Source of the DNA: a virus
Taxonomy: Duplodnaviria > Caudoviricetes
Strand: one strand, 5' to 3'
Length of the DNA: 64,000 nucleotides
Virus record (IMG/VR): IMGVR_UViG_3300010352_001202
Of the stretch, positions 3,522-63,400 are shown one piece after another. The position numbers were made by a program, and so were the translations under genes. Numbering within the stretch: position 1 is the stretch's first letter; each line of letters starts with the position of its first letter. Under the pieces are notes generated by a model. It made no database searches. It was not told the origin of the DNA and was given only the letters and a program-made list of their open reading frames with translations.

Positions 3522-4694
3522 ATGGCAACAAAGCTATTTGAATCAAACTGGGGCGCAACAAAAGAAGCCCTTCTAGAAGGCCTTAAGGGAACCCGTCGTC
3601 AAGCAATGGACGTTGTGTTTGAAAACACTCGTAAATACTTGGCAGAATCGGCTACCGCAGGTGCAACACAAGCTGGTAATATCGCAGTTCTTAACAAGGT
3701 AATGCTACCGTTGATCAGACGTGTCATGCCAACAGTTATTGCGAACGAAATCATGGGCGTACAGCCAATGACAGGTCCAGTTGGCCAAATCCACACTTTG
3801 CGTGTTCGTTACGCAAACACTGCTGCTGGTGTAACAGCAGGTACAGAAGCACTTGGTCCATTCGAAATTGCTAAGGCATATTCGGGTAACGAAGTTGCTG
3901 CCGATCCAGCTGCTGCTTCAACAGCACGTCTTGAAGGCGTACCAGGTAACAAGATGAGCATCCAAATCTTGAAAGAAACCGTCGAAGCTAAGACACGTAA
4001 GTTGTCGGCTCGTTGGACTTTCGAGGCTGCACAAGACGCTAATGCCATTCACGGTATTGATATCGAAGCAGAAATCATGCAAGCTCTTGCACAAGAAATC
4101 ACAGTTGAAATCGACCAAGAAATGTTATTCAAGCTAGGTGCTCTAGTACCTGTTGCTCCAACAACATTCAACCAAGCTGCCGTTTCTGGTACAGCTACAT
4201 ACGTTGGTGATGAAATGGCTGCTCTAGCAGTTATGATCAACCAGCAAGCTAACCTTATTGCTGCACGTACACGTCGTGGTGCTGCTAACTGGGCAGTTGT
4301 TTCGCCAACAGCGTTAACAATTCTTCAGTCTGCTACAACATCTTCGTTCGCACGTACAACAGAAGGTACATTCGAAGCACCTACAAACACAAAGTTTGTC
4401 GGTACATTGAATAGCACAATGCGCGTATATGTTAACCAGTATGCAAGCGATGGCGATCCAATCCTTATCGGTTACAAGGGACCTACAGAAACTGACGCAG
4501 CAGCTTACTACTGCCCATACATTCCATTGATGAGCGTTGGTCCTGTTATGGATCCACAGACATTCGAACCAGTCGTATCGTTCATGACACGTTACGGTTA
4601 CCTAGAATTGACAAATACAGCAAACAGCTTCGGTAACGCCGCAGACTATTTGAGCAAGGTTGGAATTGACAGCAGCACTTTGAAATTTTACTGA
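3522..4694 (+). CDS. gp23: Major capsid protein (T4 gp23-like)
   Basis: Motifs LIRRVMPTVIANEIMGVQPMTGPVGQIHTLR, VEAKTRKLSARWTFEAAQD, YYCPYIPL, FMTRYG. Confidence 0.96.
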   Translation: MATKLFESNWGATKEALLEGLKGTRRQAMDVVFENTRKYLAESATAGATQAGNIAVLNKVMLPLIRRVMPTVIANEIMGVQPMTGPVGQIHTLRVRYANTAAGVTAGTEALGPFEIAKAYSGNEVAADPAAASTARLEGVPGNKMSIQILKETVEAKTRKLSARWTFEAAQDANAIHGIDIEAEIMQALAQEITVEIDQEMLFKLGALVPVAPTTFNQAAVSGTATYVGDEMAALAVMINQQANLIAARTRRGAANWAVVSPTALTILQSATTSSFARTTEGTFEAPTNTKFVGTLNSTMRVYVNQYASDGDPILIGYKGPTETDAAAYYCPYIPLMSVGPVMDPQTFEPVVSFMTRYGYLELTNTANSFGNAADYLSKVGIDSSTLKFY

Positions 4695-25217: not shown

Positions 25218-27161
25218 ATGTCAATTAAAATTTCAGGCGTACAAATGGGGAGCCTAACAGGTGGTCCATCTGCTATAAACCTCTCTGACCTGCATGATGT
25301 CAGTATTACATCTCCTGCCACCGGCCAATATCTAAGATATAATGGCGCAATCTCTGAATGGCAAAATGCATACATTGATAGTGATGTTTTTGGTTATCTT
25401 GATTCTGCATTATCCGGAACACAAGGTGTAACAATTACAACAGTTTCGGGTCCTAACACTATTGCAATCGGACTAGGTGCTATTACACCGTCGTCTGTAA
25501 CTTCAAGCGGCACCGTTACTGGTACCAATCTTTCCGGCACAAATACAGGCGATCAGACAATTACGCTAACAGGCGATGTTACCGGATCGGGTACAGCAAC
25601 ATTCAGCACAACTTTAGCGACTGTTAATTCAAGTCCGCAAACAGATACATTTAGAAGAATTACCGTAAACGGTAAGGGATTAGTAACAGCAACATCGTCG
25701 GTAACATCGTCGGATATTACAACAGCCCTTACCTACACGCCAGTTGATAAAGCCGGTGATACAATGTCCGGCTATCTAATATTGAATGCAGATCCTGCCA
25801 GTTCGCTTGGCGCAGCAACAAAGCAATATGTTGATTCAGAAGTTGCAGCAGTGGCATCTGGTGTCAATGTTCACGCTGCCTGCGAAACTTCGACTACGGC
25901 AGCTCTTCCAACATGCACATATAATAACGGTTCGTCGGGAGTAGGAGCAACATTAACAGCAAATTCAAACGGTGCATTAGGCACTGTAGGTGGTTATGGC
26001 GGCCTTACTGTTTCTGCTCGTCTTCTAGTTAAGAATCAGGCAGCAACACTTCAAAACGGTATCTATGTTGTTACACAGTTAGGCGATGGTTCTAATCCCT
26101 GGATTCTAACAAGAGCAACAGACTTTGACGGTTCGCCAACAAGTGAAATTTCTGCAGGCGACATGACTTATGTTCAGGAAGGTACATTAGGTGGAACACA
26201 ATGGGTCGAAACAGCAATTGGAACGGGATCACCAGGTGATTACATTATTGTTGGAACAGATCCAATTGTATTTTCACAGTTTTCTGGAGCAGGTGTTTAT
26301 ACAGCAGGCTCCGGAATTGATATTACAACAAATGTTATTTCTAATACTGGTGTTCTAAGTATTGTTGCAGGTTCGGGTATTGGAATTTCTGGTGGAACAG
26401 GTAACGTAACAATCACTGCAACAGGTGGCGGCGGAACAGTAACTTCTGTGAATATTACTCCACCGTCTGCAGGTATCGGAGCATCAGGTGGCCCAATTAC
26501 AGGTTCGGGTTCAATAACATTATCTCTAACAAACGATTTGGCCGCAGTTGAAGGATTATCTACGAACGGCCTTACTGTTCGTTCAGCCACAGATACATGG
26601 ATTACAAGAAATATTGCAGTCAGCGGTACTGGTTTATCAGTTACCGATCCCGACGGTATTCTTGGAAACCCAACAGTAACGAGTAATGCAACTAGTGCAA
26701 ACACAGCATCCACTATTGTTGCGAGAGACGGTTCGGGAAATTTCACAGCGGGCACAATTACCGCTTCTCTAACAGGCGCTGCAAGCTTAAATGTACTGAA
26801 AGCTGGCGATACAATGTCGGGTGCGCTAAACGAAGCACCTGTAACAACTATTGCATCTGGCTCGACTGTAAATCTTGCAACAGCCACATCTAATACAGTG
26901 ACTGTTACCGGGACTAGCACAATAAATAGCTTCGGTACAATAGCAAGTGGCGCCCGTAGGGCACTGATTTTCTCGGGAGTTTGTACAGTAACAAATTCTG
27001 CAAATATTATTAATGTTACCGGAGCAAATATTGTTACGGCAGCAAATCAAACACTAGAATATGTTTCGTTAGGTTCCGGTGTCTGGCAACAAATTGGATC
27101 AGCTTCATCGGGCGGCAGTGTTAGCCTAGACGATGCTTTAATCTATTCACTTACATTTTGA
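25218..27161 (+). CDS. Tail-fibre-like protein
   Basis: ATKQYVD, RLLVKNQ..QNGIYVV..WILTRATDFD motifs; modules shared with the 6748, 12098 and 23546 genes. Confidence 0.75.
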   Translation: MSIKISGVQMGSLTGGPSAINLSDLHDVSITSPATGQYLRYNGAISEWQNAYIDSDVFGYLDSALSGTQGVTITTVSGPNTIAIGLGAITPSSVTSSGTVTGTNLSGTNTGDQTITLTGDVTGSGTATFSTTLATVNSSPQTDTFRRITVNGKGLVTATSSVTSSDITTALTYTPVDKAGDTMSGYLILNADPASSLGAATKQYVDSEVAAVASGVNVHAACETSTTAALPTCTYNNGSSGVGATLTANSNGALGTVGGYGGLTVSARLLVKNQAATLQNGIYVVTQLGDGSNPWILTRATDFDGSPTSEISAGDMTYVQEGTLGGTQWVETAIGTGSPGDYIIVGTDPIVFSQFSGAGVYTAGSGIDITTNVISNTGVLSIVAGSGIGISGGTGNVTITATGGGGTVTSVNITPPSAGIGASGGPITGSGSITLSLTNDLAAVEGLSTNGLTVRSATDTWITRNIAVSGTGLSVTDPDGILGNPTVTSNATSANTASTIVARDGSGNFTAGTITASLTGAASLNVLKAGDTMSGALNEAPVTTIASGSTVNLATATSNTVTVTGTSTINSFGTIASGARRALIFSGVCTVTNSANIINVTGANIVTAANQTLEYVSLGSGVWQQIGSASSGGSVSLDDALIYSLTF

Positions 27162-27170
27162 GGTAAAATA

Positions 27171-30100
27171 ATGTCATCTTCATTCAAAAGAACATACTAC
27201 AAGCCAACAACAACAGGAATGGATGTTGCATATACAGTACCTTCTGTTTCGTCAGCTATCCTGCTCAGTGCTATTGTCACACCAACTAATAACGAAGATA
27301 AGACAGTATCGTTAGGTGTTGCGCCAACAGGTTCATCTGACATTAACTGGGTAAGCAGAAATATTCCTGTCTATAACGGTTCGTCTATTAACCTTTCGCC
27401 CGATAGAATGGCACTAAACACAGGTGATAGAATTATTGTAAATGCCAACACAGATTTGATGCAATTTATCCAATCTGTTTCTGATTTGCCTATTGCTAAT
27501 CCAACATCAATTGCAGTGAATTCCGGCGGAACAGTAATTGTTATTGGTGGAACAGATGGTCTTGCAATGTCATCAGATGGTGGATTATCGTTTAATAAGG
27601 TATCGTCAGTTGCACCTGTAAATACTGGCTTTAACTTGTTGAAGTATTTTGCAAGTAAATTTATTTATTTTGTTAGTTCGTCACTTATTTACACATCAAC
27701 CGATGGCGTAACATGGACCGCAAATACCAGTGGAGTTGCAACAAACCAGATTTATCCGACTTCGCAGGTTACAGGTAATGGTTCGAGATTAGTAGGCATC
27801 AACAATGGCGCATTGTACCAGTCGACAGATGGTACAACATGGACATCTATTTCTACAAATGGATATCCTACGAATATGAAGACAATTACCGATGTTAACA
27901 TTAATTATGTTTACTATAATGCCTCGATAAGTGGTTTCTATGCATGTGGCGATAACGGTACTGTTTTCCGCTGTGGAACTACGCCCGGTGCCAATACATG
28001 GACACAAGTACCAACAGGCGTACTAGAAAACTTAAACGGAATGTATTTTGGTAGCAGTACATTAGTTGTAGTCGGTGATAACGGAAGACTCATTACTACA
28101 TCGACATATACAGATGCAGGAGTATTTGCTGTAGCCGCAGCTAGCGTAACAGGCACAACAGAAAACTTAAGAGGAATCACATTTAACGGATCTTATTGGA
28201 TAGTATGCGGAACAAATGGAACTATTCTTACTTCTACCTCTCCAACAACCTCATGGACATCAAGAACATCGGGTGTTTCGGTAACATTAAATGCGGTAAC
28301 ATTTTCTGCATCTAATAATGGTATTATTGTTGGCGATACAGGCACTATTTTATATGAAATAGGAACAGCAGGTGCAACATGGAATTCACAATCATCTGGT
28401 ACTTCCAATAATCTTAACAGTGTTATGTTTTCTGGTAGTTTAAATTCATATGTCGCCGTAGGAAATGCAGGAACTGTTATATCAAGTCCCAATGCAACAG
28501 CGTGGACTTCGAGAACATCTGGTACCTCCAACAATCTTTATTCTGTTAATCAGGGTTCTGCGACTTTTGGAATATTAATGGCCGGCGCTGCCGGGACACT
28601 GCTCGGCGTCGAACAAAGATCTGGTTTGTACAATTTTACAACATTTAGATCGGGCACAACATCGACTATAAAATCTATTTTTGCTGTAGGAAATGCAGGA
28701 ACTTATGCAGCATATGTTGGCGCCAATGGCCTATTTGGAATGTCAACTACGGAATTTACTTCTTCCCAGCTACTTACAGGTGCTTACATTGCATCCGACC
28801 TAGTCAGCGGTACATCTACAAAATTCAATGCCATTGCCATGGCAACAACTGGTTCTAATATTGTTGCAGTTGGAGATAGTGGTATTATTTACACTTCGGC
28901 ATCTAGCACTTTAACAACATGGACATCAAGGACATCTGGTGTAGGTGTAAACCTTAATGGAGTGGTACAGAACAGTGCTGGTGTTTGGGTTGTAGTAGGT
29001 GATACAGGCACTATTCTAACAAGTTCTACATTAACAACATGGACTTCACAGACATCGAGCACATCAAACAACCTAAACGGTGTTTGCCTCGGCCCGGGTA
29101 CGCCAAGTTTTATTGCTGTAGGTAACGGCGGTGTTGTTAGAACAGGTGATGCAACTGGCGTGACATGGACTTCACAGACAAATGCCGATACAGCAAATCT
29201 AAGAGCTATTGCTTTTAATTCAGCAAACACAAACTGGGTTGCAGTCGGCGATGGTGGCAGAGCATTACTTGGCACAACTTCGGGAACTACCTGGGCTGTT
29301 CAAACATCTAACACATCTAACAACTTAAGAAGTATTTCTTGGACACCGACCTTTAACTATACTGCTGTGGGTGATGCTGGTACTGTTATTTCTGGTGTCG
29401 CAGGCGGTACATCATGGACCGTAAGAAATTCTGGAACGGCTGAAAATCTATTTACTTGTTTGTCACTCAACTCAGGCGTTGCAGGTCTTTCAGTACTTAC
29501 CACCGTCGGCGCAGCAGCATTTGGTGATAATGGATGCATGATAACATCAAATACACCGACATCTGCTAACTTTGTAACCAGAAAAATAGCGGTAACAGGT
29601 GCATTATATGGAAGCACAGATACAGGAACAGTAACTCTTGCCGTAGGTGCAAGTGGAAAAATTTATTCATTCTCTGTTGTTAACGGTGGATTCCAAGAAA
29701 TTTTTGTATTAAGGCCGAACGACATACCGGCGATTGCGGGTGGTACAAACTTTGCAGTAGCACCAGGCCCGTTTTCGACAATGTATACTTCGGGAACCAC
29801 TGCTGCAACAAACAGATGGAATACTTTATTCCCGACATCTGGCTTTGCTGAGATGAACCTAAGGAAAGCAATTTACAATGGTACCTCATGGATGATGGTG
29901 GGTAATAACGGAAGTGCAATGACCCTGTCAAGCAATACACAGACTGGTACTCCTACTATGCTTACCACACAGACAAATACAAATCTTCGAAGCGGTATCT
30001 ACAATACAAGTAGTGTAATACATATTCTTGTTGGAGAAGATGGCGGAATATTCACATCGACCTCGTCAGTTAGTACAATGATTATTACAAAGAGAACATC

Positions 30101-32042
30101 GGGAACTACACAGGATTTAAATGATATTGCGTTTAGGGGATACTTAAATGTTGTTGTGGGAAATGGTGGTACAATATTAACTTCGAGCAATGCCGGCGTT
30201 ACATGGACTTCACAAACATCTGGAACAAGTGAAAATCTATTAGGTGTTGCATACAACGGCACATTAGATATTTTCATTGCTGTTGGAGCCAATGGTACCA
30301 TTCTTACAGGCAATACTACAGGCACAACATGGACTTCGAGAACATCGGGCACATCAAAGAATCTTAACGGTGTGTTTTTTGCTAACGGCAACATTCCTGT
30401 TGCTGTCGGCGACACAGGCACAATTCTAGTTTCTACAGCAGCATCTCTTGGCGCTACATGGACTTCCATCACACCTGTAGTTGATCATGATTTGCTCGGC
30501 GGATGCACATTACCGTCATCTACACAGAATTATATTGTCGGTAAGGGTTATACAATTATTGATGCAACAGTTACCACAGCACCTGTTATTAGATCTTCAT
30601 ATACACCGAACTGTTCGATTACGGCTGGATGCCCAAATCCGGTGGCAACTGCAAGACCTGTCTTTGTGGGAACCAATGGAATGATTTTCTACGGCATGGG
30701 TCGTCAGGGATCGAGTATGTTTACTCCACGCTTTAGTGGAACATATTCTAATTTAAACGATATTTGTACAACAGCTATTAGTTCAAATGCCATGCTTGCC
30801 TGCGGTGATTCGGGAACTGTTATTCAGTGTTCTGCTGCATCTATTGGATATGTACCGTGGTCTTATATCACTTCAAACACGACAGATAATTTATACGGTA
30901 TTGGAACCGGTGTAACAAATACATGTTGCTCCGTCGGTGCTGGCGGTCGTGTTGTCTATGGATCGCCCAATGTTAATTCTTCCTGGACTGTAGCGTCTAC
31001 AACCAACACAACAAATAGATTAAATTCTGTTTCGACTTTTACATCTAACTGGTGTGCGGTAGGTGCCAATGGTACAATTATTACATCAAATTCTGAACCG
31101 ACACCTGCTTCATGGACATTACAAACCACCGGCACTACAGAAACATTTAATTCTGTAAGACTCGATACCACTAATACTGTGTTTATAGCTGTCGGGACAA
31201 ACGGAATTATCAAAACATCAGCGAATGCTTCTCCATCGACCTGGTCCACAAGAGCTTCTGGTGTTACAACAGAGCTAACAGATATTGGATTCCTTAGTGC
31301 AGGTAGCAGTACGAGTATTGTTGTTGGAAAGGCCGGTACATATTTAACAAGTTCTAATCTTTTAACATGGACGGCAGTGTCCTCTGGCACAACAAATGAC
31401 CTTGTAACGGTTGTTTCTGTAGGAAGTAGCTTACCAATATATGTTGATTCGATAGGATCGATTTATGGAAAAGATACATCTGCAGGAGTAACAGCTACAT
31501 TATTGGCAGCACCGAGAGCGGTTACATCTCAAATTTCATTATCTAATGCAACATTACTTTCGTACCTTACACCAATCGGCCTTACTTCGTACAATGTCTA
31601 TTTAGGGCTATCGGGCAAAACTATTGCTTTGAAATCACAAACATCGACGACAGCAGTCACAGATATTACTTCTGTTGGCGATAGTTCAAATACAATTTTC
31701 TTTGTTGCACAAACAACAGGAAATGTAAGATCTACCAGCGATTTCGTAACCATGACAGATCTTGGATATGCAGGAAAGGCAACAAAATCATTAGGTAATA
31801 GAGTTATTTCCGGCACCGATGGTGTAATTAGCGTGCCGCAATCAACCGTTGTTGCATCGGCACTGACAGCAAATGTTGTACCGTTCGGGCCGACATTAAC
31901 TTCGGCAGCGAATTTTGATAGATACAGTAATACATCGTTGGGATTCGATTCCAGCGGTAATCTGTGGAAAATAGATGATACCACATCCGCCGTGCCGAGA
32001 GGTGGATTGCAACTTGTTGTATCGACAACGGAGATTGTATAA
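27171..32042 (+). CDS. Large beta-propeller repeat protein (BNR/Ycf48-like repeats), probable receptor-binding or virion protein
   Basis: Many ~43-aa repeats of VAVG..GTIL.S....WTSRTSGT..NL..V. Confidence 0.75.
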   Translation: MSSSFKRTYYKPTTTGMDVAYTVPSVSSAILLSAIVTPTNNEDKTVSLGVAPTGSSDINWVSRNIPVYNGSSINLSPDRMALNTGDRIIVNANTDLMQFIQSVSDLPIANPTSIAVNSGGTVIVIGGTDGLAMSSDGGLSFNKVSSVAPVNTGFNLLKYFASKFIYFVSSSLIYTSTDGVTWTANTSGVATNQIYPTSQVTGNGSRLVGINNGALYQSTDGTTWTSISTNGYPTNMKTITDVNINYVYYNASISGFYACGDNGTVFRCGTTPGANTWTQVPTGVLENLNGMYFGSSTLVVVGDNGRLITTSTYTDAGVFAVAAASVTGTTENLRGITFNGSYWIVCGTNGTILTSTSPTTSWTSRTSGVSVTLNAVTFSASNNGIIVGDTGTILYEIGTAGATWNSQSSGTSNNLNSVMFSGSLNSYVAVGNAGTVISSPNATAWTSRTSGTSNNLYSVNQGSATFGILMAGAAGTLLGVEQRSGLYNFTTFRSGTTSTIKSIFAVGNAGTYAAYVGANGLFGMSTTEFTSSQLLTGAYIASDLVSGTSTKFNAIAMATTGSNIVAVGDSGIIYTSASSTLTTWTSRTSGVGVNLNGVVQNSAGVWVVVGDTGTILTSSTLTTWTSQTSSTSNNLNGVCLGPGTPSFIAVGNGGVVRTGDATGVTWTSQTNADTANLRAIAFNSANTNWVAVGDGGRALLGTTSGTTWAVQTSNTSNNLRSISWTPTFNYTAVGDAGTVISGVAGGTSWTVRNSGTAENLFTCLSLNSGVAGLSVLTTVGAAAFGDNGCMITSNTPTSANFVTRKIAVTGALYGSTDTGTVTLAVGASGKIYSFSVVNGGFQEIFVLRPNDIPAIAGGTNFAVAPGPFSTMYTSGTTAATNRWNTLFPTSGFAEMNLRKAIYNGTSWMMVGNNGSAMTLSSNTQTGTPTMLTTQTNTNLRSGIYNTSSVIHILVGEDGGIFTSTSSVSTMIITKRTSGTTQDLNDIAFRGYLNVVVGNGGTILTSSNAGVTWTSQTSGTSENLLGVAYNGTLDIFIAVGANGTILTGNTTGTTWTSRTSGTSKNLNGVFFANGNIPVAVGDTGTILVSTAASLGATWTSITPVVDHDLLGGCTLPSSTQNYIVGKGYTIIDATVTTAPVIRSSYTPNCSITAGCPNPVATARPVFVGTNGMIFYGMGRQGSSMFTPRFSGTYSNLNDICTTAISSNAMLACGDSGTVIQCSAASIGYVPWSYITSNTTDNLYGIGTGVTNTCCSVGAGGRVVYGSPNVNSSWTVASTTNTTNRLNSVSTFTSNWCAVGANGTIITSNSEPTPASWTLQTTGTTETFNSVRLDTTNTVFIAVGTNGIIKTSANASPSTWSTRASGVTTELTDIGFLSAGSSTSIVVGKAGTYLTSSNLLTWTAVSSGTTNDLVTVVSVGSSLPIYVDSIGSIYGKDTSAGVTATLLAAPRAVTSQISLSNATLLSYLTPIGLTSYNVYLGLSGKTIALKSQTSTTAVTDITSVGDSSNTIFFVAQTTGNVRSTSDFVTMTDLGYAGKATKSLGNRVISGTDGVISVPQSTVVASALTANVVPFGPTLTSAANFDRYSNTSLGFDSSGNLWKIDDTTSAVPRGGLQLVVSTTEIV

Positions 32043-41052: not shown

Positions 41053-41126
41053 GAGTCATAAGTGTTACGGTAGCACATCAGTCTCCAAAACTGAGGGCCG
41101 GGGTTCGACTCCCTGACGACTCGCCA
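41053..41126 (+). tRNA. tRNA-Trp(CCA)
   Basis: TCAGT-CTCCAAA-ACTGA, G73-CCA; U11-A24. Confidence 0.9.
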
Positions 41127-60057: not shown

Positions 60058-60629
60058 ATGCTTGTAAAGATAATAACTGTTGTAGATAATGATAAGCTTT
60101 TAGCAGCATTAGAAGAAATTTCGATTATTAGCTGGGAAACTATTGTTGATGAAAGAGCCAGAGATATATTTACTACCAGTAGAAGTATTTCTCTTAGAAC
60201 ACATAAAATTACCGGTGCACCACCTAAAACAATCGATGAATCATCTAGGATTTTAGATTGCACCGATATTGTAGTTAATAAGCAGAAATATGTACAATGC
60301 TATAATTAGCCGAATGGGCATATAAACAGGTAGGCGGGATATCACTAGGACGGGTAATGATTGTAAATCTGCTACCCAACGGATATGTTTCTTCGCATAT
60401 CGATCCCGGCAGTTATTTTGCAAAATATTCAAGATTTCATATACCGTTAATAACAAATGAGCAAGTTGTATTTTCTCGATACGAAGATACAGAAAAAGAA
60501 CATATGCCGTATGGGCATCTTTGCCAACTTAATAACTTGGATATGCATATGGTAAGAAACAACAGTGATCAGCCAAGGATTCATATTATTGCTGACATTG
60601 AAGTACCGGGCGGTAACTCTATATTCTGA
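60058..60629 (+). pseudogene. Asp/Asn beta-hydroxylase-like 2OG-Fe(II) oxygenase split by a 1-nt frameshift near 60306
   Basis: Adding one base joins ..VQCYN to LAEWAYKQVGGISLGRVMIVNL..HID..RFHIPL..H.VRN..RIHII. Confidence 0.7.
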
Positions 60630-60797
60630 ATCCTTGCGATGTGTAGCCATTTGTAGTAAAGTAGCGATCTGAGGTGTTATCAGACCAATTTACGGTGGTA
60701 GCGCACTAGGTAGTAAGGGCTGCATCCCTGCTGCAAACAAACGCAGGTAAAGCGGTAGGTCGGCTTGCCGGTAACATCTCAACTAAATTTACGATTT

Positions 60798-61046
60798 TGA
60801 TTACTTGGACAATCGCTGCTGTAATGGTAGAGGAAGTTCGGGTCTGCAAAGAGCAGGGTTTGTCGCTCTGTGGGAGAATATCTAATTATCGGCTGCCATA
60901 AAGAAAAGGATGATATGGCCCCAGGTGTTGACCGGCGAAAGCCCATGTCTCACCCTGCCCGATAGCCGCAACTATTCGTTTGTACCACAACGACTCCGCA
61001 GTAACACAAACAGTTCTCGCTGACGCTGCTCGCCGAGGGAATGGTT
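60798..61046 (+). ncRNA. 3'-truncated RNase P RNA-like copy
   Basis: GGACAATCGCTG..GAGGAAGTTCGGGTCT 5' signature; shares GTGGGAGA and AACACAAACAG with the second copy; no 3' P4 strand. Confidence 0.65.
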
Positions 61047-61048
61047 AT

Positions 61049-61246
61049 TTTGGTGTCCGATCTAACGCTGGCAACAGAGGAAGTTCAGGACTTGCGCCGA
61101 GTGCGAGTGGGAGACCTTGGTCGTTATTACCACCGTGATATAGCAAGCAACACAAACAGAACCTGGGAACATTCGGCCTATAGGTTCGGGTTGTGGCAAA
61201 GATGAATGTTAGAGTTGAAACAGAATCCTGGCTATGAGACACCAAA
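61049..61246 (+). ncRNA. rnpB: Compact RNase P RNA (about 198 nt)
   Basis: P1 TTTGGTGTC/GACACCAAA; P2 TCTAAC/GTTAGA; P4 GAGGAAGTTCAGGA with ACAGAATCCTGGCTA; AGATGAATG junction. Confidence 0.85.
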
Positions 61247-61288
61247 TTTTTTATACGGGTTGTAGCACTATATTAGATAAATAGTATT

Positions 61289-61897
61289 ATGTTCAAACCC
61301 ACATACCTATACATAAAAACTCATAATGTTACCGGATTGAAATATTTTGGTAAAACTGTAGGTGATCCCTTTAGATATAAAGGATCGGGTGTAAGATGGC
61401 TGAATCATCTATCTGTACACGGCAATAAGGTGACCACTGAAATAATCGGGCATTATGAAGTATTAGAAGAATGTAATAAGGCAGCATTAGAGTTTAGTGA
61501 AAAATACAATATAGTAAAGAGTGACGAATGGGCCAACCTTATTGTCGAAGACGGTCTGATGGGAGGATTCACTGAAGATCACGGTAAGAAGATAAAAGAA
61601 ATATGGAAAAATCTTACCGAAGAAGAAAAAGACATAAGAAGGCAAAAAGCCAACCCCTGGAATAATAAAACAGAAGAAGAGATAAGTCGATATAAAAAGA
61701 ATCTTCAAGATTCTATGATTGATATGTATCAATCGATTGCCGGTAAAGAATTATTAGAACATAAGAAAAAAGTAGGAAAATCTTTATTAAAGAATGGAAA
61801 AAGAATGCTATCCGATGAAGCACGACAAAGAATGAAAGAATCGGCGTATAGGACAAACGAATTAAGACGAATAAAGAAGGAGAAAGATAATGCGTAG
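61289..61897 (+). CDS. GIY-YIG homing endonuclease
   Basis: YLYIKTHNVTGLKYFGKT..YKGSGVRW..WANLIVEDG. Confidence 0.88.
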   Translation: MFKPTYLYIKTHNVTGLKYFGKTVGDPFRYKGSGVRWLNHLSVHGNKVTTEIIGHYEVLEECNKAALEFSEKYNIVKSDEWANLIVEDGLMGGFTEDHGKKIKEIWKNLTEEEKDIRRQKANPWNNKTEEEISRYKKNLQDSMIDMYQSIAGKELLEHKKKVGKSLLKNGKRMLSDEARQRMKESAYRTNELRRIKKEKDNA

Positions 61898-62558
61898 AAT
61901 TTTAGAAATCCGCGCAGCAGAAGGCGGAGAAGATAGCAAGCTATTTACGGTAGATCTTGCACAAGCATACCAACGCCATTTTGATCGAGTCGGCTGACTT
62001 AATCGAATAGTAAAGAATGTCCCTGGCGAACTTTATATAGAAGTTGAAGGGCAAAGTTTACACCATCTAGAAAACGAGGCCGGCGGCCATCGCATACAAA
62101 GAGTCCCTCCAACAGAGCGTAAGGGCAGAGTTCATACTAGCACCGTAACGGTTGCAGTCATTGATCCCGAATTACAGGTCAAAGAATACAAAGATTCAGA
62201 CTTTAGGATAGAATGGTATAGTGGTACAGGTGCAGGCGGGCAACACAGAAACAAACATCAAAATTCGTGTCGAATCACTTATACGCCCACAGGCCAAACT
62301 GCTACTGCCCAGTGTCGTTCTCGACAAAATAGCCTAGAACAGGCTAAAGCAGCATTAATAGAACAGTTAAAAAGCGAGGATCACAGACAGAAGAAATTTA
62401 GTCTCGATTCTGAAAGAAAACAGCAAGTTGGTTCTGGAATGCGCGGCGACAAGATTAGGACATATCGTTTTCAAGATGATGTAGTAAAAGATCACCTTAC
62501 AGGAAAAAGTGGTAGCGTAAAGCAGGTTTTACGCGGATACTTTGACTTAATGTGGTAG
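61890..62558 (+). CDS. RF1-type class I peptide chain release factor lacking domain 1, with in-frame TGA at codon 36 (61995-61997)
   Basis: LEIRAAEGGEDS..YQRHFDRVG*LNRI..EAGGHRIQRVPPTERKGRVHTSTVTVAV..GAGGQHRNK..RGDKIRTYRF; missed by the ORF track. Confidence 0.9.
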
Positions 62559-62568
62559 GAGAAAAATA

Positions 62569-62997
62569 TTGCCAAAAAGTAAAGGAATAAGAGAATCATA
62601 TCGATTTGCTCGGGAGGCCGCTCGTATCGCGGGAAATAAATTCTATATCGGTCAAATCTGTAAGAAACATCCGGAATTGTTAGGCCAACGGCAGGTTAAT
62701 AATTGTATCTGTATTGAGTGTAGAAAAGAATATTCAAGACTGCAAAGTACTGGATTTTCGGTAGAATTATTTAATTTGGTATTAAAGCAACAAGAAAATA
62801 GTTGTGCTATATGCAGAGATAAATTTGATAATACTGATGCACACGCAGACCATAATCATGTAACTAAGCAACCACGCGGAATACTGTGCCGAAAATGTAA
62901 TTTAATGATAGGGTTTGCACGAGATAATCCGGAAATTTTACAAAATGCTATAGAATATCTTGCTAAACCAGACCTAATTTTTGGTTGTGATAAATAA
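62569..62997 (+). CDS. Endonuclease VII-like HNH nuclease
   Basis: QENSCAIC..HADHNHVTKQPRGILCRKCNLMIG..DN. Confidence 0.85.
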   Translation: MPKSKGIRESYRFAREAARIAGNKFYIGQICKKHPELLGQRQVNNCICIECRKEYSRLQSTGFSVELFNLVLKQQENSCAICRDKFDNTDAHADHNHVTKQPRGILCRKCNLMIGFARDNPEILQNAIEYLAKPDLIFGCDK

Positions 62998-63029
62998 AAA
63001 TATATATTATAGTTTTAGTTATTGTTGTA

Positions 63030-63350
63030 ATACGGACTGATTCAAAGGATTCAAGACGCGGGTTCGATTCCCGCCGGCTCCACCATTAAGCACATTTGCC
63101 GAATGTTCTTAATAATGGGGCCGACCAGGTTTCGATTGGGTCGCGGAGAGGATGATACGCAACACGCCAGGCGATCGGCGTTAATGAAGCAAAACTCTGT
63201 AAATGCAAACGCAAATACATTCGAGACAGTAGCCCTTGACCTTTCAGCTCTTGCTGACAGCGATATGGCTCTTGCTGCTTAATACCCAGCATACTCCGGG
63301 GCTGGTTAGCCTTGTAACCCAATAACCTTATAGGGACTTCGGTCCCTATA
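63030..63350 (+). ncRNA. ssrA: Two-piece (circularly permuted) tmRNA
   Basis: Acceptor piece ends GACGCGGGTTCGATTCCCGCCGGCTCCACCA (63085); hairpin spacer; coding piece starts GGGGCCGA (63117); tag ANANTFETVALDLSALADSDMALAA* (63205-63282). Confidence 0.92.
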
Positions 63351-63371
63351 ATTATGACTTTTATTTCAAGG

Positions 63372-63400
63372 TTGACATTTCAAGAATAATGTCATATACT
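63372..63400 (+). promoter_or_regulatory. Sigma70-type promoter for the OMP gene
   Basis: TTGACA-17 nt-TATACT. Confidence 0.8.

Follow-up and report, generated by a model that had tools for sequence, protein, structure and literature searches.

A predicted RF1-type release factor gene with a conserved in-frame UGA at codon 36 in a family of giant phages

How can a phage make a release factor whose gene is interrupted, after 35 codons, by a stop codon that the factor itself should not read? The question is raised by a gene in a 64,000-nucleotide stretch of DNA (hereafter the window; IMG/VR record IMGVR_UViG_3300010352_001202), whose source is a giant phage from activated sludge. The predicted product is of RF1 type and, being so, should not read its own UGA. 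The features discussed below are collected in Table 1.

Table 1. Features in and around the release factor (RF) gene; coordinates are those of the window unless another sequence is named
Feature	Coordinates	Strand	Remarks
Phage tRNA-Trp(CCA)	41053-41126	+	Candidate near-cognate UGA reader
RNase P RNA-like element	61049-61250	+	Bacterial class A, 42.7 bits (gathering 100), E 6e-12; sub-threshold
GIY-YIG-like ORF (YLYIKTHNVTGLKYFGKT N-terminus)	61289-61897	+	Upstream of RF gene; no Pfam or PHROG match
Shine-Dalgarno AAGGAG	61877-61882	+	7 nt ahead of the ATG; read from sequence
RF1-type gene (predicted)	61890-62558	+	222-codon frame, ATG at 61890, TAG at 62556-62558
Codons 1-35 (EIRAAEGGEDSKLF...)	61890-61994	+	Strand beta-1 and helix alpha-5, RF domain 2
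In-frame UGA gate, codon 36	61995-61997	+	Aligned with conserved Trp of RF1
3' context of gate, codons 37-42	61998-62015	+	Gene-wide minimum of synonymous diversity
Codons 37-222 and TAG	61998-62558	+	Remainder of domain 2, domain 3, domain 4
PPT	62106-62114	+	Domain 2; frame shared with ATG
GGQ, codons 116-118	62235-62243	+	Domain 3; frame shared with ATG
Endonuclease VII ORF	62569-62997	+	Downstream of RF gene; PF02945, 3.9e-18
Permuted two-piece tmRNA	62971-63373	+	413 nt 3' of RF gene; RF01850 127.6 bits, RF04321 132.4 bits
tRNA(CUA)	G001:255570-255644	-	Also L123 (G002) and L121 (G005)
prfB-style cassette	L085:1478-1494		GGAGG, 3-nt spacer (GGU), CUU UGA C; ORF resumes in +1 frame

A short release factor gene with one internal stop

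A single stop, in the context GGC TGA CTT, interrupts the 222-codon frame. The initial annotation had described this frame as carrying PPT and GGQ motifs, lacking domain 1, having TGA at codon 36 with both sides in one frame, and ending in TAG, and all of this was recovered from the sequence and from Pfam and NCBIfam matches. When the TGA is read as a residue, Pfam finds PCRF (PF03462, 1.4e-22, profile positions 103-194 of 194) followed by RF-1 (PF00472, 9.8e-17), an architecture that, with its intact GGQ, is that of a class I release factor. The NCBIfam model prfA scores 181 bits and prfB 103 bits. Positions 107-332 of 347 of prfA are aligned, and because the alignment begins at prfA position 107/115, domain 1 is absent. 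The protein is not a full-length RF1, as 181 bits lies below the prfA cut-off of 400 and its 222 residues compare with about 360.

A phmmer search of PDB sequences aligned the protein with residues 88-314 of Thermotoga maritima RF1 (2fvo/1rq0; E 4e-37). In this alignment the TGA coincides exactly with the W of ...YAERKGW..., which confirms its earlier placement at a conserved RF1 Trp; the decoding segment RIQRVPPTERKGRVHTS pairs with RVQRVPVTESGGRIHTS, and the GGQ is intact. Residues typical of RF1 decoding are present (PxT, a Gln three residues before it and His-Thr after it), and the PPT is invariant among 27 relatives. An AlphaFold2 model (27 relatives) has a mean pLDDT of 83.7 and is closer to ribosome-bound RF1 (TM 0.79) than to the closed free form (0.46). 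The parts that read the codon are kept: the GG-E motif of helix alpha-5, the Q of RIQRVPPT, the PPT and the H-T. We conclude that this jumbo phage encodes a predicted class I release factor of RF1 type that lacks domain 1. From motifs only, we infer that it would release at UAA and UAG, not at UGA. Among GenBank phages there was no near-identical DNA and no close protein relative (identity at most 40%).

A role in ribosome rescue had also been proposed for this protein, which resembles PrfH and ArfB as a short GGQ protein without RF domain 1. It differs from both in retaining the complete RF1 codon-recognition domain, including the PPT. The PrfH model TIGR03072 gives 40.5 bits where 166.65 would be required, its match being confined to the GGQ domain, no ArfB match was obtained for the whole protein, which has a domain 2, and no RtcB gene adjoins the RF gene in the window. 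Since the whole stop-codon-reading apparatus is kept, unlike in ArfB and PrfH, the protein looks like a stop-codon-dependent terminator and not a stop-independent rescue factor, and the rescue role is not supported.

The start of the RF gene overlaps the 3' end of the upstream GIY-YIG-like ORF by 8 nt. A sequence scan found no in-frame ATG, GTG or TTG from the TGA to 62439. Because there is no canonical start for these 147 codons, the distal part cannot be a separate gene.

Conservation of the UGA and its surroundings

A scan of IMG/VR yielded 256 related stretches, from which the best 80 loci (59-82% protein identity) were kept. TGA stands at codon 36 in 80/80 of these best 80, with 0 other internal stops. 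A second IMG/VR scan, with a distant protein as seed, added 28 further loci and TGA at codon 36 in 28/28. Thus all 108 other loci examined (~59-82% protein identity to the window gene) carry TGA and none TGG, an agreement far greater than chance would give, which settles in favour of the initial annotation whether homologous genes share the codon. With the window gene, the comparison set rises to 109 genes; 100 of the sequences are unique, and they form 55 clusters that share less than 80% nucleotide identity. In 109/109 genes the gate codon is UGA, never UAA or UAG.

In the window clade synonymous sites are saturated (pS about 0.76-0.77), with a pN of 0.14 over codons 2-35 and of 0.19 over codons 37-222. 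Saturated pS with low pN on both sides of the TGA indicates that both parts are translated in one frame. Because purifying selection acts on both sides and TGG is one transition away, the TGA is held by selection. A conserved in-frame stop followed by in-frame sequence under purifying selection is the pattern of readthrough, and it bears out the earlier view that full-length protein requires decoding of the retained UGA. A pseudogene or a sequencing error would need only that one transition, TGG to TGA at a Trp codon. This explanation is refuted by the TGA in 108/108 relatives at such divergence with purifying selection on both sides, and by the TGA in a 250-nt contig of an independent wastewater run, which spans 61924-62173 and differs at five positions, all of them outside the TGA; we regard the probability of such an artefact as negligible. 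Two activated-sludge sequencing runs, which may be the source of the record, contain the DNA, and no RNA run was among those listed. Judging from the retention of the TGA in all 108 related phage genes examined, the codon is a built-in control, not damage or error. Gene callers cut short or miss the gated RF genes, and many database representatives start only past the stop; for annotation this means that short RF genes with an internal UGA are liable to be missed or truncated.

The surroundings of the UGA are also constrained. The preceding codon is GGY. The +4 base is A in 84% of the 55 cluster representatives and otherwise C or G; U occurs in 0/55 gates vs 32/97 (33%) of the true TGA stops of G000 and the complete relative G001 (Fisher p = 1e-7), a difference partly confounded by the choice of amino acid at codon 37. 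Position +9 is always a pyrimidine, and +10 is C in 96-98% of sequences. Over codons 36-42 the ratio of observed to expected synonymous diversity is 0.17-0.62 per codon, compared with a gene mean of 0.78, and the minimum after smoothing over 7 codons, 0.36, lies at codon 39. This context is consistent with a leaky, weakly terminating stop.

RNA structure varied among the clades. For the window and its close relatives, a downstream hairpin was no better than in shuffled sequences (z -0.6 to +1.3), and the window clade gave no consensus structure (RNAalifold -0.21 kcal/mol). The main clade (the large TRLI clade) has an interrupted 8-bp hairpin with 90.6% paired, without significant covariation, as 38-104 of 500 shuffles reach the covariation and both-sides-changed measures. 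Some clades can fold a hairpin beginning 7-12 nt past the UGA, as insertion of selenocysteine through a SECIS-like hairpin would require. At the homologous position stands Trp or some other hydrophobic residue, never Cys; G001 has no tRNA-Sec; the hairpins show neither conservation in the window clade nor covariation in the main clade; and the model places the site in a structural beta-sheet, not at a redox site. The combination that marks a selenoprotein (UGA with SECIS, tRNA-Sec, Cys in homologues) was not found here, and we consider selenocysteine barely credible.

A local hairpin of the window, 61980-62007, includes the UGA (101-nt fold, z -2.3) and is not conserved. It would suit a bypassing event like that of T4 gene 60, in which peptidyl-tRNA-Gly leaves GGC35 and lands on a downstream Gly codon: a Gly codon directly before a stop recalls GGA-UAG, from which take-off occurs in gene 60, and pS is reduced over codons 37-46. 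Against this, besides the lack of conservation of the hairpin, codons 35 and 46 are incompatible with one tRNA-Gly in 25/74 sequences. Window-clade pN/pS for codons 37-46 is 0.40, similar to the adjacent segment, which argues that the stretch is translated, and the strand that would be skipped is modelled confidently as part of the domain-2 sheet. A jump from Gly35 to Gly46 was rejected on codon incompatibility and pN/pS, and we hold bypassing in general to be highly improbable.

Genetic code, candidate decoders and neighbouring genes

If the UGA at codon 36 is decoded, what would read it? TGA terminates 15 of the 59 long ORFs in the window, including at ATGA overlaps, and closes the major head protein gene (3522-4694, phrog_138), in agreement with the earlier remark that UGA is a real stop elsewhere in this DNA. 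The corresponding counts are 16/66 in the window's 99-kb record and 81/246 in G001, a complete relative of 369,145 bp whose RF gene is 80% identical to that of the window. No other window gene requires TGA or TAG as sense. A search of the whole genome for further gated genes had too little sensitivity to be informative, since even the RF gene escaped it. The genome uses the standard genetic code. At 25218-27161 (+) a 647-aa tail fibre/structural-like ORF ends in TGA, with an ATG in the same frame 6 nt on; a 1623-aa ORF (27171-32042, +) follows in that frame, and the two are probably adjacent genes, a fusion made by readthrough being less likely.

The 99-kb record holds 30 tRNAs and a tmRNA, with tRNA-Trp(CCA) among them. 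ARAGORN run on the whole genome of G001 found a tmRNA and 47 tRNAs, of which one is Trp(CCA) and a single one is tRNA(CUA). A tRNA with a UCA anticodon or a tRNA-Sec was found neither in the 99-kb record nor in complete G001, nor in the tRNA regions of G002 and G005. The earlier suggestion of a phage UCA suppressor tRNA finds no support in the 99-kb record or in G001. These results bear on a dedicated decoder, for which the candidates are a tRNA(UCA) that suppresses opal stops and genetic code 4 adopted late. TGA-recoded Jade phages do carry RF1 beside a UCA tRNA (bioRxiv 10.1101/2021.08.26.457843), and the record to which the window belongs has a completeness of only 26%. Complete G001 has no such tRNA, however; TGA stops a third of its long ORFs as well as the major head gene of the window, and no second window gene needs TGA as sense. 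We consider a dedicated decoder very unlikely.

The phage tRNA-Trp has U11-A24 in its D-stem, which is not universal among relatives. U11-A24 is the arrangement that results from the Hirsh G24A suppressor mutation of E. coli tRNA-Trp (PMC13092985). No suppressor-like feature of the phage tRNA (A24, A9C, a 4-bp anticodon stem) was consistent across relatives.

In each of the three complete jumbo relatives examined there is a single amber suppressor tRNA, which has a CUA anticodon and which ARAGORN labels Pyl; in G001 it lies ~5.5 kb past the tmRNA that succeeds the RF gene. Relatives with this tRNA still stop at TAG (30 of 246 long ORFs in G001), and none was found in the window's 99-kb fragment. 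At UAG, tRNA(CUA) and an RF1-type factor would be competitors. An RF2-like phage partner was not found: each of five complete relatives has one RF-domain gene, which argues against a reciprocal partner of RF2 type.

The RF gene sits in a translation island; tRNAs of the window lie at 35.8-49.4 kb, and in 56 of the best 80 of 256 loci tRNAs occur within 3 kb of the RF gene. The tmRNA of the window is of beta-proteobacterial type, and its position after the RF gene is a conserved linkage in the window clade. Its predicted tag is unusually long (ANANTFETVALDLSALADSDMALAA), the tags of relatives being shorter (ANDSFYTEALAA, AANDAVFALAA). Upstream of the RF gene, an ORF-free, GC-richer stretch (60650-61288) contains the RNase P RNA-like element of ~202 nt, in which the universal core motifs are kept (GAGGAAGUUCAGG, AGCAA, CGGGU, AGAUGAAUG, ACAGAAUCC) and the specificity domain is absent. 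G001 has a weaker match in synteny, immediately upstream of its RF gene (L230, G001:264188-264298, -), and there was none in G002, G003 or G005. Possibly the phage encodes here, next to its tRNA and tmRNA genes, a minimal RNase P RNA.

Both nucleases that flank the RF gene are likely to be of homing type, and relatives show other insertions beside it, such as a NUMOD3 protein in L003. In the main clade a DSP-type phosphatase (PF22785/PF00782) precedes the RF gene, forming a neighbour cluster in 53 loci (e.g., L015:1962-2456 and L035:3533-3994), and at some loci an AAA_33 P-loop kinase follows the RF gene. Such RNA-repair-like neighbours recall the pairing of PrfH with RtcB. Further upstream in the window, 60357-60629 (+) encodes a 90-aa ORF with only the C-terminal half of an Asp/Asn beta-hydroxylase domain (PF05118, 80-157 of 157).

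A possible link to RF2 and comparison with known systems

Other phages have stops in comparable places. Domain-1-less RF1-type genes of AT-rich huge phages (635-735 kb) carry early in-frame TGA codons: at codon 52 in LR756502, at codons 39 and 52 in LR756501, and at codons 46 and 54 in LR745206, with an ...SI-TGA site common to the three (L082, L083 and L084, respectively). Their neighbour genes are identical under code 11 and code 4, and the few neighbouring ORFs hold no TGA. In LR745208 (L085), a GC-rich, 485-kb uncultured phage, the domain-1-less gene is again prfA-like (175 vs 107 bits), and the sequence at the site homologous to window codon 36/37 is ...GGA GGG GUC UUU GAC..., a prfB-style cassette. 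This is, by its sequence elements, an RF2-sensing prfB cassette inside an RF1-type gene. The PxT loop of the LR745208 protein is shortened (RVQRTSNGRIHSS). Uninterrupted short homologues (35-50% identity), known from protein sequences alone, have W, L, I, F or A at the gate position; an IMG/VR search seeded with one of them (P0003) returned only the TGA family. Since uninterrupted homologues exist, the gate is clade-specific and not obligatory for the protein family.

We think it likely that the RF1-type factor of the window is made through programmed in-frame readthrough of the UGA at codon 36. Three points here are what we infer: that the UGA is decoded by readthrough, that Trp is inserted there, and that the gate serves to sense RF2. 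Most ribosomes would stop at codon 36 through host RF2 and release a 35-residue peptide, while a fraction would decode the UGA by a near-cognate tRNA, most likely host or phage Trp-tRNA(CCA), and complete the 222-residue factor. Near-cognate decoding in frame appears to be the only simple route to the protein, and Trp is the residue expected. The output of the gate would then reflect competition between RF2 and tRNA-Trp only; the gate would be blind to its own product, because an RF1-type (PPT) factor does not read UGA. Under this scheme the factor would be kept scarce, and its output would rise when termination at UGA slows.

Control of prfB by UGA is established (PMC5009743). As an RF1-type factor should not read UGA and sister lineages have a prfB device, the gate probably couples output to RF2 activity. 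The initial annotation had gone further and described a switch thrown by RF2 shortage. Dependence on RF2 is plausible, supported by the prfB cassette in the distant phage RF1-type gene; the shortage switch would be a further step, at present conjectural. It speaks against RF2 sensing that the RF1-type factor cannot replace RF2 at UGA and could help only at UAA.

The gate may also serve to hold a potentially toxic factor scarce. One could suppose that the UGA is purely an attenuator, cutting the yield of a toxic RF roughly 100-fold with no sensing selected. In favour of this, bacteria suffer when release factors are overexpressed (PMC12421855), a conserved stimulatory structure is missing from the window clade, and RF1 is no substitute for RF2 at UGA. 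A weak ribosome-binding site or promoter would serve equally, however, and would drift, whereas UGA specifically in 109/109 genes, together with the prfB cassette of the distant relative, points to the RF2-specific codon as the selected feature. We therefore judge pure attenuation unlikely.

If programmed readthrough is accepted, a wider role can be put forward tentatively, as one that we find somewhat doubtful. The gene could act as a cross-wired termination sensor, in which the output of a UGA-blind RF1-type factor tracks failure of host RF2, the gate of the sister lineage being a prfB-like CUU-UGA-C frameshift. The factor would then take over termination at UAA and UAG and, with the tmRNA, the tRNA set and the amber suppressor of relatives, could form a virus-owned stop-codon module that sustains phage translation as host termination decays. 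The configuration, an RF1-type factor gated by an RF2-specific codon, is unexpected, and it is fixed in a large family of giant phages. If confirmed, the gate would offer a compact natural readout of RF2 activity and a clear case in a bacterial system of obligatory programmed readthrough early in a gene, and it would indicate that phages watch over the termination capacity of their hosts and buffer it.

The closest known system is the +1 frameshift of prfB, which depends on an SD-like element and CUU UGA C. Both are class I RF genes with an early in-frame UGA whose decoding depends, or would depend, on RF2, and LR745208 has the prfB cassette at the homologous site. Unlike prfB, the window ORF (GTC GGC TGA CTT) continues in frame 0, so that readthrough and not frameshifting would apply, and the SD-like element and the CUU slippery codon of the frameshift site are absent. 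As the RF1-type product would not read UGA, this would not be autoregulation but the sensing of another factor. Readthrough of an in-frame stop as control of an RF gene was proposed before prfB was sequenced and was never found in bacteria (PMC5009743). Atkins et al. 2016 noted that an in-frame UGA with a same-frame ORF is absent from RF2 genes, and that an RF1 counterpart was unknown (PMC5009743). Prince et al. 2025 found no programmed recoding of prfA among 12,753 bacterial genomes (PMC12421855). The published studies of huge and recoded phages that we searched do refer to RF1 and RF2 genes of phages and describe no gate of this kind in them.

Viral termination factors that depend on stop-codon recoding have a precedent. 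An amoeba giant virus, as far as its citation in PMC5009743 describes it, has a release factor gene requiring readthrough and frameshifting; that factor is of eukaryotic eRF1 type, with other family and signals, and is evolutionarily unrelated to the window gene. Jade phages likewise have RF1 among their translation genes (Borges et al., bioRxiv 2021.08.26.457843). Their RF1 genes are described as written in the standard code and serve a genome-wide switch of TGA to Trp with a UCA tRNA (bioRxiv 2021.08.26.457843). The window genome, in contrast, keeps TGA as a stop, no UCA tRNA was found, and the TGA is confined to the RF1 gene.

Programmed readthrough of UGA by near-cognate tRNA-Trp is known, for example, from the coat/A1 extension of Q-beta. 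The proposed event would share with it a leaky UGA, a normal tRNA, a low set frequency and a bacterial host with the standard code. The classical cases add a C-terminal extension to a functional protein, whereas this stop comes as early as codon 36 of 222 and the terminated product would have 35 residues, so that only the readthrough product could be the enzyme.
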